A DNA stretch of 32,253 nucleotides from a virus, in the IMG/VR virus record IMGVR_UViG_3300009499_000172, one strand, 5' to 3'. The stretch's first letter is position 1; each line of letters begins with the position of its first letter. This document shows, piece by piece, positions 22,713 to 25,911 of the stretch. The translations under genes and the position numbers were made by a program. A model generated the notes under the pieces. It saw only the letters and a list, made by a program, of their open reading frames with translations, did not search any database and had not been told where the DNA came from.

Positions 22713-24464
22713 TCAGCGACGCTTCCTCGTGTCGGTCATCTTGATTACCGTCGTGTTCGGGCCCGGGTCAAACATGAGTTCACACCCAGGTGCAAGAACG
22801 TATGCAAGTGGAAGTGCACTCTTGCTCGGTGCAGAGCACCCTCCATCCGTTAGCATAATTAGTGCGTCAAGCCTATCGGCATGCTTATTGCCGTACTGCA
22901 CGGCTGCCTCGAAGTTCGTTCCTCCGCACTTCGTCCTGATTGTGTTCGGTTTCTGACCTCGCTTGATGTTCTGGATGTTCTTCTCATCAACATCGTAGTC
23001 GAACGGGATTATCTCATACTCAGAGAGATTTCCGAGCGCATCGAGCTCTGCAAAGAACAGAGATACCCATTCATCATCCATCGACCCAGACTGGTCGAAC
23101 AGGATGCCCGGTCTTGCGCTATACGCCCTCTTACGGCCCGGAAAATCCCACGGCACACGACGATTGACACGCTTGATGCTCGACGTCGTCTGCGATGTCC
23201 TCGTGCGACCGATGAACTGGTTCAGCAACGCTCTCCAATCGACCTCCTTGGAGATTAGCTTCTTGATTGCCGCCACCATCGATGAGGGCACAGAGCCCCA
23301 TCCCTTCGATTTGCTCTCAGTCTCCTTGACACAGTCCCTGAAGACGTCCCTGATTGCGTCTCTCATCATATCACGCTGTGAATCCGACATCTGGTCCCAC
23401 GCATCGTGGTCGTCGAAGGATGCTCCTGAACCCTCGCCGAACAGCTCTTCATTTAGCGCATTCTCGAGGTCGCGATCGATTCCATTGGGCTCGCCCGGGT
23501 CCTGTGCGTTCTGGTCAGGGTCACCTCCCTCACCAGAGCCCGGTTGGCCTTCGCTTGGGTCGCTATTCGGGTCAGACATACCCTTGCCCTTTTGTCCTCC
23601 CTGCTGCCTCTTTTGCTTTCTCTTTTCAGCCTTCTCAGCGGCACGTTGCATCGCTTCCTGCACGCCCTTATCATCGAGGAACGTGTTCATGTACCACTCA
23701 GACGACTTACCCTTCGGCAACGACTTAATCAACAACGACAGCACACCCGGCTTCCATTCAGGAGGAGCATTCGGAGGAACATACAGCTCTCCCGGATGAC
23801 AACCGAACGCCGGGAGCTCATCACGAGGAATCAGAGAGTTGATTGCACAGTCTGTGGCAACGTTCCACAGGATGTGTGGCGTCTGACGCCTGTTGGTGAT
23901 GTGCTCACAGACGATGTGGTATAGCTCATGCTTATACACGCCGTAGCAGTGCTTCGGTGAGATGGCATGCAACTTGTGCTTGAAGAAGATTGGATTCCAG
24001 AGCATCTCAAGGCCCATACCATTGATGCGTACGCCGACGGTTGGAATAGCCGCCGTCTTAATCTTCAGGATGCGTCTCGAAAGAGAACCGAGAAATGGCT
24101 CATCAAACGACATCGGAATGATACATGCACGTTGCAAATCAAAGTCCTGTGAGCTTGCCCACAGTTCCTTGAACTTCTCAATATCAAGACACCAATCCTT
24201 GATGAGCTCAGGTGGAAGCTGGCTTGTGTTGTATGCCTTCTCATTTGGAAGAACGTCAGGCTTCTCCATGACGTTCTTCTGCTCTTCGACGAGCTGCTCC
24301 CACGTCTTCTCTGCCTCTTCAACCTCAAGCTTCTTCTCATCATCTTTCGACATATCATTCACATCCTTTTGTCGTGGATACTGCATTGTCATACGACAGA
24401 ATGCCATATGACAATGCAGCATGCTTTCATGCCTTTTTAGGGGCTTCAAACCCTTGAAGCGCAC
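22713..24464 (-). CDS. putative HExxH metallopeptidase domain + disordered acidic/Gly-rich linker + C-terminal VWA domain (DUF2201-like MoxR partner)
   Basis: HExxH motif YKHELYHIVCEH. VWA MIDAS motif ILFDQSGSMDD plus downstream TDGG. The likely true start is MSKDDEKK at 24353 (AAGGA upstream); the first 37 codons of the ORF-track call overlap the upstream ORF. Confidence 0.75.
   Translation of the reverse strand: MRFKGLKPLKRHESMLHCHMAFCRMTMQYPRQKDVNDMSKDDEKKLEVEEAEKTWEQLVEEQKNVMEKPDVLPNEKAYNTSQLPPELIKDWCLDIEKFKELWASSQDFDLQRACIIPMSFDEPFLGSLSRRILKIKTAAIPTVGVRINGMGLEMLWNPIFFKHKLHAISPKHCYGVYKHELYHIVCEHITNRRQTPHILWNVATDCAINSLIPRDELPAFGCHPGELYVPPNAPPEWKPGVLSLLIKSLPKGKSSEWYMNTFLDDKGVQEAMQRAAEKAEKRKQKRQQGGQKGKGMSDPNSDPSEGQPGSGEGGDPDQNAQDPGEPNGIDRDLENALNEELFGEGSGASFDDHDAWDQMSDSQRDMMRDAIRDVFRDCVKETESKSKGWGSVPSSMVAAIKKLISKEVDWRALLNQFIGRTRTSQTTSSIKRVNRRVPWDFPGRKRAYSARPGILFDQSGSMDDEWVSLFFAELDALGNLSEYEIIPFDYDVDEKNIQNIKRGQKPNTIRTKCGGTNFEAAVQYGNKHADRLDALIMLTDGGCSAPSKSALPLAYVLAPGCELMFDPGPNTTVIKMTDTRKRR
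24381..24419. repeat. perfect 13-bp inverted repeat (CTGCATTGTCATA / TATGACAATGCAG) with 13-nt loop
   Basis: Read directly from the sequence. It lies between the stop of ORF 24427..24741 and the probable start (24353) of the VWA gene. No U-tract follows. Confidence 0.7.
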
Positions 24465-24741
24465 GCAAGACTATCGCTCCACAACACCTATGAACCCTTT
24501 TCAGATTTTCTAGTGCGATGCTTTCTTCACGCCCATCATCATGGGCACTCAAAACTACACTGTATATGTTCCATACACGCTGTGCAGTCTGAACATTCAT
24601 GGCATCTCTGATGCAGATGACATCATCATCTGATAGCTCTTGTGTACGAAGAACATCTATCATGGGCCTAAGCCCGGTTACATACAACTCATCAGAGATG
24701 CTAGTGTCAAACAGATGTTGAATCAAACCCTCGTCAAGCAT
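24427..24741 (-). CDS. hypothetical protein between the MoxR and VWA genes
   Basis: 104-aa ORF. It starts 3 nt after the MoxR stop. Confidence 0.35.
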   Translation of the reverse strand: MLDEGLIQHLFDTSISDELYVTGLRPMIDVLRTQELSDDDVICIRDAMNVQTAQRVWNIYSVVLSAHDDGREESIALENLKRVHRCCGAIVLRALQGFEAPKKA

Positions 24742-24744
24742 ACA

Positions 24745-25911
24745 TCACTTCTTTTTCTTGGTGTCAGGCACCGAGGGTTGGGCCTTTCCATTGCTCAAGA
24801 CCTCGATTATGTAGCTACCAACATGCTTATGCACGACCTTCACATTCTCGACAGCAGTATGAGCAATCTTGCTCCAAAGCACGACAACAAGCTCAGACGG
24901 AATCAAGCGAATGAACGTTCCGATGTTCTTCGCCTGGGGTTCAGTGAGAATGATGTTCTTAGACACGAGATGGTGTCCAAGCTTATCAACGAGCGCGATG
25001 GCTGCATCAGGCTTGAGCCTCTTAACCTTGCTCTGCACCTTGGAGATGTTATTCAACACATCCTCAGGAGAGACATTCTGGTCGTGGTCGACCTGGAACC
25101 TCACGTAGGCTCTGGCAGCATCAGGGCCGACGAACCCACGAGCAACGTCGTAAGCGACACCATCACCAATCTTTTCGAGAAGCGTAGCACCATTGACGGT
25201 CCTATTGAAATGCCGGTCAAGACGCTCCCACGATCGGCGCGATGGGGTGATTTCACATGGCCCCATGTTAGCGAGCTTATCGGGTCGAATCTCAAAGTGG
25301 TCCTCGTTGCATTGCTGGATGAAATCGATGGTCGCATCAGAGATGCCACCACCACCATCGGTCTTCGACTTACGCGCCCAGGTCACCCAATCGGTCTTGT
25401 CTGGGTCGAGGTCTGCGACCCAAAATCTATCAAGGAATGCAGGGTCCATTGGAGTGACCTGGTATTCCTTAGAGAAGTTGACGGCGGCGATGATTCGACT
25501 CTCAGGATGAATCTTTCGACCATTGAGTTCACCCTTCTCAATGAACTGGAAACATGCTTGCATCGTCTCTGGAGTACCGCGGTTGATTTCATCGAGGAAC
25601 ACGAGACATGGCCTAAACTCAGCCTCAAGGAACCAATCGGTGGGTAGGAACTTCGTGACCTTCTGGAGGTCTCCACCATCATACGACTTCATGGCATCAC
25701 GGTCAGGAAGACCAATCATGTCTCCCTCGCTCAACTGTGAGATGCGACGTTCGATGACACGGTCAAGACCCCATTCTTTTGCCATCTGGTAGGCGATGGC
25801 GGACTTTCCGATACCGTGGCGACCCCGGATGAGCGCGGTCTGTTTTGGGTCGATGTAGCGGAGGGCCTCCACAAGGCCACGCATCGTGAACGTACTGGTT
25901 GCTTCAGACAC
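24745..25911 (-). CDS. MoxR-family AAA+ ATPase
   Basis: Walker A GRHGIGKSAIAY and Walker B LVFLDEINRGTPETMQACFQFIEKGE (the MoxR hallmark DEINR). GTG start with GAGGTG RBS. Confidence 0.85.
   Translation of the reverse strand: MSEATSTFTMRGLVEALRYIDPKQTALIRGRHGIGKSAIAYQMAKEWGLDRVIERRISQLSEGDMIGLPDRDAMKSYDGGDLQKVTKFLPTDWFLEAEFRPCLVFLDEINRGTPETMQACFQFIEKGELNGRKIHPESRIIAAVNFSKEYQVTPMDPAFLDRFWVADLDPDKTDWVTWARKSKTDGGGGISDATIDFIQQCNEDHFEIRPDKLANMGPCEITPSRRSWERLDRHFNRTVNGATLLEKIGDGVAYDVARGFVGPDAARAYVRFQVDHDQNVSPEDVLNNISKVQSKVKRLKPDAAIALVDKLGHHLVSKNIILTEPQAKNIGTFIRLIPSELVVVLWSKIAHTAVENVKVVHKHVGSYIIEVLSNGKAQPSVPDTKKKK

Follow-up and report, generated by a model that had tools for sequence, protein, structure and literature searches.

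An ATPase gene, a small open reading frame and a zincin-VWA gene

We analyzed a two-gene module that encodes a MoxR-class AAA+ ATPase and a zincin metallopeptidase fused to a VWA domain, located in a 32,253-nt stretch of the IMG/VR virus record IMGVR_UViG_3300009499_000172. This whole stretch is called the window here; coordinates refer to its full length, and all of its genes lie on the minus strand. The ATPase gene (24745-25911 (-), 388 amino acids, GTG start) is followed by a small open reading frame (ORF) for an acidic protein of 104 amino acids with an isoelectric point (pI) of 4.9 (24427-24741 (-)), whose ATG lies 4 nt past the ATPase stop codon, by a 73-nt spacer with a 21-bp hairpin and 3-nt loop (24378-24422 (-)), and by the gene for the protein composed of metallopeptidase, disordered linker and VWA domain (22713-24353 (-), 546 amino acids). 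The original prediction, made from the sequence alone, had listed the Walker A and B motifs, an HELYH motif, the linker, a DQSGS element, the small ORF and the hairpin, and every one of them was found at the place it gave. We report that the two large genes form a divergent member of a known and conserved phage gene pair, represented by gp24 and gp25 of phage N4 (PHROG 1297 and PHROG 1314, the latter corresponding to DUF2201) and by g028 and g029 of phage AR9.

The product of 24745-25911 is, as had been proposed, a MoxR-class AAA+ ATPase, here placed in the AAA_5 / helix-2-insert clade: it matches AAA_5 with 28.7 bits, above the Pfam cut-off of 22, and phrog_1297 with an E value of 1.2e-48. 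When a profile of 40 homologs was searched against the PDB, the AAA domains of Midasin came out best (1e-23), followed by CobS (2e-4) and CbbQ (6e-3). The Walker A motif GRHGIGKS (25801-25824 (-)) and the Walker B motif LVFLDEINR (25579-25605 (-)) read as predicted. Across the 40 homologs G33, G35 and K36 of the former and D107, E108, N110 and R111 of the latter are invariant, and so are N145, R162 and R226, which we read as sensor 1, the Arg finger and sensor 2.

The second large protein matches DUF2201_N (PF13203) with 57.9 bits (cut-off 23.2), while its VWA-like C terminus matches DUF2201 (PF09967) with 24.6 bits, slightly below the cut-off of 26.4, in line with the DUF2201-type HExxH peptidase/VWA assignment made at the outset. 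The corresponding COG is COG3864, "predicted metal-dependent peptidase". It also matches phrog_1314 (E 3.9e-41), whose label "HNH endonuclease" is a wrong annotation. The motifs ascribed to this protein stood up, and its length of 583 amino acids, taken from an ORF track, did not. That reading uses a GTG at 24464, and the gene would then overlap the small ORF and traverse the hairpin. The protein most likely has 546 residues, because homologs align from the ATG at 24353, the methionine of which is nearly invariant, and because the gene call in the related locus L255 begins at the equivalent ATG.

A full-length AlphaFold model (mean predicted local distance difference test score, pLDDT, of 82) shows a helical/beta domain at the N terminus and an alpha/beta domain at the C terminus, with residues 263-289 disordered. 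A PDB sequence search with the zincin-VWA profile returned noise only, and fold comparison was used instead. By this comparison the N-terminal domain is a zincin core that lacks a close solved relative and resembles Wss1/Spartan and ArdC-type peptidases, among others, while the C-terminal VWA domain (22734-23201 (-), residues 385-540 of 546) matches the metal ion-dependent adhesion site (MIDAS) domains of NorD and Midasin. The zinc-binding/catalytic HExxH motif HELYH (23916-23930 (-)) is followed by IVCEH, and H142, E143, H146, H151, D168, D314 and H316 are invariant in 48 homologs. The MIDAS site is complete (DQSGS at 23082-23096, T of GGT at 22917-22925 and D of LTDG at 22842-22853, all (-)), and all of its residues (D420, S422, S424, T479, D503) are likewise invariant in the 48 homologs. 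Judged by these residues, both the ATPase and the zincin-VWA protein look active. The acidic, Gly- and Pro-rich core of the disordered linker (23487-23567 (-), residues 263-289, pLDDT <50) lies inside the DUF2201_N region. Most homologs measure 400-480 amino acids and lack the linker insert, and nucleotide identity to L255 drops to 43-53% in the linker region.

The pair belongs to a widespread phage gene set

The original prediction had held such a pair to be unusual in a phage-like gene array, a view at odds with its distribution. Homologs of the ATPase were detected in 273 of 50,697 deposited phage records, mostly N4-like phages together with AR9/PBS1, Staphylococcus, Vibrio, RSL1 and cyanophage jumbo lineages, and in a further 233 IMG/VR stretches; the latter came from an alignment-based scan, a single-protein locus search of IMG/VR having returned none. 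The N4 gp24-like and gp25-like proteins of phage LUZ7 fall into PHROGs 1297 and 1314 with E values of 5.8e-123 and 3.9e-124, and AR9 g028 and g029 fall into the same two families (9.7e-77 and 7.2e-84). N4 gp24 (AAA ATPase) and gp25 (vWFA) are two of the 14 core genes of N4-like phages (Schitoviridae) and are middle transcripts in N4 (PMC4193335), and a MoxR-vWA pair with an N-terminal metallopeptidase has already been described in jumbo phages (Iyer et al. 2021, PMC7824862). The gp24/gp25-type pair is thus one of the few gene sets common to N4-like podoviruses, several jumbo lineages and hundreds of uncultured viral contigs.

Linkage between the two genes is tight. At 90 ATPase loci, after seven cases of overlapping ORFs had been corrected, the VWA gene lay directly downstream of the ATPase gene in 39, was separated from it only by small ORFs in six, and lay farther away within 10 kb in 21, making 66/90 loci with the partner within 10 kb.

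The N4-type pair, as seen in LUZ7 (ORF37 and ORF39), shares with the window both PHROG families, the order ATPase then VWA, and, with the slightly sub-threshold DUF2201 match of the window protein, the DUF2201_N plus DUF2201 architecture of the gp25-like protein. LUZ7 too has an ORF between the two genes, of 153 amino acids and unrelated to the small ORF of the window. Identity between the N4-type and window proteins is about 25%, and the window protein differs from N4 gp25 by a linker insert of ~50-80 residues and a longer N terminus. The genomes differ as well: the window phage spans at least 122 kb and carries sigma factor, Cpn60 and MVP genes, whereas the N4-type podovirus has 72 kb. Among deposited phages the best matches come from AR9/PBS1-type Bacillus jumbo phages (25-27% identity over 90% of the ATPase). 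In AR9, g028 lies next to g029, whose annotation reads "zincin-like protease fused to vWA domain"; this phage has no intervening ORF or hairpin, and its host belongs to another phylum.

A fast-diverging small protein and a hairpin at the gene junction

What is new here, and leaves this overall picture unchanged, is the junction between the two genes, with its fast-evolving acidic protein and a hairpin that shows compensatory changes. The small ORF, which has no match in Pfam, PHROG, PADLOC or NCBIfam, is real, as had been predicted. Among 1.84 billion representative proteins it has, besides its own cluster, two genuine homologs of 100 and 101 amino acids (~30% identity) that share with it an EELSDDD motif, and both are encoded between the ATPase gene and the VWA gene, one in L255 and the other in a second related locus, L258. 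Three long repeat proteins also matched by the small ORF look compositional and were set aside. The protein is acidic in character (pI 4.8-4.9).

Its divergence stands out against its surroundings. L255 is 91% identical to the window in the ATPase, 87% in the VWA protein and 30% in the small ORF (the MVP and sigma genes are not on the L255 contig); the corresponding values for L258 are 93%, 86% and 32%, with 95% for MVP and 89% for the sigma factor. At the nucleotide level, identity to L255 is ~80% across both large genes and ~50% from the ATPase stop codon to beyond the hairpin. Nonsynonymous divergence (dN) against L258 reaches 0.67 in the small ORF, as opposed to 0.06-0.09 in the ATPase, sigma factor and VWA genes, so that the small ORF is diverging about ten times faster than its neighbors; its dN/dS is not estimable, since synonymous sites are saturated. 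Two more genes diverge fast between the window and L258, orf110 (44% identity; 21293-21625 (-)) and an HSP20-like gene (59%; 29497-29898 (-)), the rest being 80-95% identical.

The hairpin, which the original prediction had called perfect, was confirmed: it has a perfect 13-bp core, CTGCATTGTCATA/TATGACAATGCAG, and reaches 21 bp once G-U pairs are included. It folds with a z-score of -5.5, and 200 shuffled sequences gave no fold as good. Hairpins of differing sequence occupy the same position in L255 (z -4.2) and L258 (z -4.9), and a core, ATTGTCAT/ATGACAAT, is invariant across the three lineages. Over the 21 pairs of a three-way alignment, standard pairing holds in 98.4% of the 63 pair cells; four pairs have changed on both sides, one of them being C-G, A-U and U-A in the different lineages, and five have changed on one side. 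Sliding one arm by 1-3 columns lowers the paired fraction to 21-59%. These data are supportive rather than conclusive of a structure kept through compensatory changes, three sequences being a small sample.

A classical intrinsic terminator is ruled out, because the hairpin has no U-tract. Rfam yielded no family match for it, merely far sub-threshold look-alikes of miRNA precursors, and an exact-pattern scan of IMG/VR for ATTGTCAT-N15-ATGACAAT gave 18 matches, none beside an ATPase or VWA gene and hence attributed to chance. Five further stable hairpins of 13-21 bp occur on the coding strand of the window (15792-15839, 9850-9900, 20643-20682, 14452-14489 and 29385-29424); their sequences are all different, they lie mostly between ORFs, and most lack a U-tract. 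The presence of at least five hairpins of unrelated sequence elsewhere in the window weakens the idea that the hairpin is specific to the ATPase-VWA module, and they suggest that this phage uses RNA hairpins between genes genome-wide. At the junction, the hairpin probably works on the transcript: it would affect processing or stability, or terminate transcription in part, and in this way set how strongly the VWA gene is expressed compared with the ATPase gene.

Small ORF and hairpin are together a lineage-specific insertion at the ATPase/VWA junction. The hairpin is not a defining part of the ATPase-VWA pair, since both the small ORF and the spacer are missing from most relatives. The small protein could serve as an adaptor, or it could be a moron with no connection to the pair. 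Hypervariable and acidic as it is, it may also retarget the ATPase/zincin-VWA machine against host proteins.

The pair is not physically tied to MVP

An MVP-like gene (17492-20155 (-), 887 amino acids; MVP_shoulder 1.8e-18, Vault_3 3e-8) begins 2558 nt beyond the stop of the VWA gene, and the pair had been proposed to form an assembly or remodeling machine for the MVP shell. We turned the alignments of ATPase, VWA and MVP into hidden Markov models (HMMs) and ran them on the six-frame ORFs of every fetched locus, with a limit of 10 kb. Around 80 ATPase-seeded IMG/VR loci (32-42% identity), the VWA gene was found within 10 kb in 56 and MVP in none. Conversely, 0 of 80 MVP-seeded IMG/VR loci had the ATPase-VWA pair nearby, nor did any of 80 MVP-seeded genome loci, almost all from metagenome-assembled genomes (MAGs) of Myxococcota, where a single weak AAA match was seen. 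Among the 50,697 deposited phage records only three contain an MVP homolog, against the 273 with the ATPase.

The three genes occur together only in the clade of the window (ATPase identity at least 49%; L005-L011, L257 and L258), where they all lie within 3-6 kb. The locus L012, whose ATPase is 50% identical and which has the same synteny of sigma factor, ATPase, VWA and RadA-like genes, has no MVP in the syntenic slot. The 462-kb record LR756500 of an "uncultured phage", one of the three with an MVP homolog and scanned in its entirety, carries an adjacent ATPase-VWA pair (L282 10322-13516, at ~200.3-203.5 kb of LR756500.1; HMM E values 1.8e-25 and 3.2e-42) about 180 kb from its MVP homolog at 21.3-23.4 kb. 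To the question of whether the MoxR-VWA pair always travels with MVP, the answer for the 10-kb flanks is no, in both directions. The pair is far commoner than MVP, with no physical tie between the two, and their adjacency is lineage-specific synteny and not evidence of a functional bond.

The earlier argument that VWA belongs to the MVP-interacting modules of vPARP is weak. Binding of vPARP to MVP goes through its C-terminal INT domain and is not known to involve its VWA domain.

MVP itself is widespread in Myxococcota and in large phages. The protein database contains 2882 homologs, of which those closest among the named ones (44-51% identity) come from Myxococcota MAGs, and MVP matches were found in 159 stretches of IMG/VR viral contigs of up to ~450 kb and in 410 stretches of genome contigs. 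Either the phage copy came from a host or the host copy from a phage, probably.

Genomic neighborhood and probable host

Contigs assembled from ENA and Logan (SRA) datasets, up to 122 kb long, encode an identical ATPase. The neighbors of the pair in the clade are non-structural and comprise a 5'-3' exonuclease, Cpn60, NUDIX, HSP20, a sigma-70-type factor, a lipoprotein with MopE repeats, DenV, an HNH endonuclease, a RadA/KaiC-like ATPase, a helicase and a methyltransferase. Annotation of the window ORFs with Pfam, PHROG and further resources identified no structural gene in the window. The host is probably a member of the Myxococcota, as we infer from the closest named MVP homologs, which belong to Myxococcota MAGs, and from the MopE repeats. 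Such repeats are typical of this phylum.

A putative ATP-driven, client-specific machine and its alternatives

By analogy with cellular couples, we consider it on balance probable that the pair forms a two-protein, ATP-driven and client-specific protease/remodeling machine that handles its client before late expression. The ATPase would assemble into a hexameric ring on which the VWA domain docks; the metal-bound MIDAS site would capture a carboxylate or acidic residue of the client protein; ATP hydrolysis would remodel the client; and the zincin domain, tethered via the flexible linker, would cut it. The client would be a non-structural phage protein, such as a replication or transcription factor, or a host protein, and not specifically the MVP shell.

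The catalytic residues are invariant, the genes are tightly linked, and the families are those of N4 gp24/gp25 and AR9 g028/g029. The template for ring and VWA domain is NorQ-NorD, in which the pore of the NorQ hexamer is plugged by the NorD VWA domain and activity depends on ATP hydrolysis, on the integrity of the NorD VWA domain and on carboxylates at the client surface (PMC9976466). The cellular couples NorQ-NorD, CbbQ-CbbO, RavA-ViaA, CoxD-CoxE and Midasin, in which an AAA_5-class ATPase is joined with a MIDAS-bearing VWA partner, likely illustrate the working principle of the phage pair, but they have no fused zincin, are encoded beside the enzymes they serve, and work by inserting cofactors or releasing inhibitors instead of cleaving. 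CbbQ-CbbO and Midasin with its MIDAS domain are further analogies for the scheme of a ring and a VWA domain. As to timing, the AR9 record has an early promoter annotated directly upstream of g028; with the middle transcription seen in N4, this suggests pre-late expression of the pair. We favor a client that is handled before morphogenesis because of the N4 middle transcription, the AR9 early promoter and the non-structural neighborhood found here.

Several points weigh against this reading. Docking of the VWA domain on the ring, proteolysis and timing are all things that we infer for the phage pair. At 24 of the 90 ATPase loci no VWA partner was seen in the available flank, and in Vibrio phage phiKT1024 the two genes lie ~46 kb apart; the two proteins thus need not always be co-expressed. 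In two members of the window clade, L010 and L011, the ATPase, VWA and MVP genes are contiguous, with a gap of 150 nt between VWA and MVP; MVP may thus be a lineage-specific client in this clade, although nothing but proximity speaks for it. Iyer et al. favor a role in virion assembly (PMC7824862), and the ATPase homolog of the jumbo phage DC4 of Staphylococcus showed up, by one peptide, in purified virions (PMC10638138).

The last two points bring in the alternative that the couple is a virion-assembly chaperone with a maturation protease, the MoxR-VWA part folding or assembling structural proteins that the zincin then processes. Iyer et al. made this proposal explicitly for group 2.2 jumbo phages, with tail growth of Acidianus two-tailed virus (ATV) as precedent (PMC7824862), and the chaperone genes Cpn60 and HSP20 lie within 10 kb in the clade of the window. 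ATV does encode a MoxR/VWA couple linked to tail development, but it is an archaeal virus, its couple has no peptidase domain and is virion-associated, and we liken the two by description. The DC4 peptide was flagged as unconfirmed by its authors. In N4, gp24/gp25 are transcribed in the middle phase and are grouped with replication genes, and g028 has its early promoter, whereas 41 of 43 AR9 virion proteins derive from late genes. Podoviruses and jumbo myoviruses share the pair despite very different virions, and the window is devoid of structural genes. We regard a virion-assembly role as unlikely. We think still less of the chances of an anti-defense or host-takeover protease, in which the MIDAS site captures a host protein, the zincin destroys it, and the small protein serves as an adaptor or as a decoy that keeps pace with host variation; such a protease would in fact be one particular form of the machine proposed above. 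The rapid divergence of the small ORF, with length, position and motif kept, would fit, as would early/middle expression in N4 and AR9 and the likeness of the zincin core to Wss1/Spartan and ArdC-type peptidases, among others. The only experimental hint comes from a different MoxR ATPase, that of phage Bas54, which is needed to overcome a predicted defense system (bioRxiv 10.1101/2025.11.20.689424), but the parallel is a loose one: Bas54 (136 kb) is not among the tblastn matches listed, and the seven of 29 Escherichia matches that are listed all measure 70-75 kb. With no record of the size of Bas54 among these, a link to its ATPase could not be established. The pair itself evolves slowly and belongs to the N4-like core set, which is atypical for anti-defense genes; the intervening ORF is missing in most relatives; and positive selection on it cannot be shown, its synonymous sites being saturated.

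A dedicated machine for assembly or remodeling of a vault-like MVP shell is largely refuted as a general function, and we give it only a slender chance. It could draw on the 3-6 kb spacing in the clade, on the contiguity in L010/L011 and on the co-occurrence of MVP and pair in the huge phage LR756500. It is contradicted by the lack of co-location in all three seeded locus sets (0/80 each), the ratio of 273 to three phage records, the ~180 kb between pair and MVP in LR756500, the synteny kept in L012 without MVP, and the cellular MVP homologs of Myxococcota, which have no such neighbors. In a narrower form, this phage clade may have co-opted the pair to mature or remodel a phage MVP shell, which would explain the contiguity in L010/L011 and the spacing of a few kb in every close relative; to our minds it has little in its favor. 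Least probable is a housekeeping MoxR system (CobS/CobT, NorQ/NorD, CbbQ/CbbO or GvpN) or a vWA-MoxR-VMAP ternary conflict system. The ATPase class is shared, the profile matches CobS and CbbQ weakly, there is a weak match to phrog_249 ("porphyrin biosynthesis"), and the probable host phylum, Myxococcota, is rich in ternary systems. But the ATPase matches no NCBIfam equivalog (the best, GvpN, scores 15.9 bits against a cut-off of 266.8), PADLOC gave no match for the ATPase, the small ORF or the zincin-VWA protein, and genes for target enzymes are absent nearby, so that a chelatase or NorQ-type system is contradicted by the lack of both an equivalog match and an adjacent client-enzyme gene, and the PADLOC outcome tells against a known defense system. 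Ternary systems, as well as iSTAND systems, likewise have a MoxR ATPase followed by a vWA protein with an enzymatic domain and are common in multicellular bacteria including myxobacteria. The ternary order is VMAP-MoxR-vWA, with effector domains C-terminal to vWA (Kaur et al. 2020, PMC7159879), whereas the window pair has no VMAP or iSTAND gene, carries its enzymatic domain N-terminal to VWA, is phage-encoded and belongs to a conserved core gene set. A ternary system was rejected on architecture only, there being no VMAP-C library model: the upstream gene encodes the MopE-repeat lipoprotein, and an extra gene separates MoxR from vWA.

Further features of the window and its relatives

A chaperone cluster lies just upstream of the pair across the clade, consisting of Cpn60/GroEL, HSP20 and NUDIX genes followed by the sigma-70-type factor (L005 1928-3625 and 6035-6415; window 29497-29898), and a Cpn60 gene was found within 10 kb of the ATPase gene in five more distant IMG/VR loci. 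Directly upstream of the ATPase gene in the window is the gene for the predicted lipoprotein (26024-27967 (-), 647 amino acids), which has an N-terminal lipobox-like LISAC signal and at least four MopE/Cu-binding repeats; in relatives it lies 3-5 kb upstream. Its C-terminal domain is conserved and contains an invariant DGSGSM..ITDE pattern. Against the PDB it matched integrin and ANTXR2 VWA domains only, and weakly (E ~0.02), while hhalign against the VWA profile gave 40% probability over 21 columns. From these sequence features, it may be a second, exported VWA protein.

On the other side of the module, a zinc-finger ORF (65 amino acids) and an HNH endonuclease ORF (198 amino acids) at 21903-22693 (-) correspond to one 257-amino-acid gene in L005-L007. 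In the window this gene is split near 22530 by the loss of one base, which reflects either a mistake of assembly or the decay of a homing endonuclease. L255 does not have this segment, and small ORFs unrelated to it come after the VWA gene there. A RadA/KaiC-like P-loop ATPase of 290 amino acids (14510-15382 (-)), matching the N-terminal region of TIGR00416 sms (5e-20), is a second conserved neighbor, present within 10 kb of the ATPase gene in ~30 of 80 distant viral loci. The segment 10574-14421 (-) encodes an 824-amino-acid ResIII-type helicase, with a weak PADLOC match to PbeA (4e-7), and then a 458-amino-acid N6-adenine methyltransferase-like protein, which may together be a phage-borne modification or anti-restriction module. 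A tRNA gene at 260-341 (-) (Rfam RF00005, 43.9 bits) overlaps the ends of two listed ORFs.

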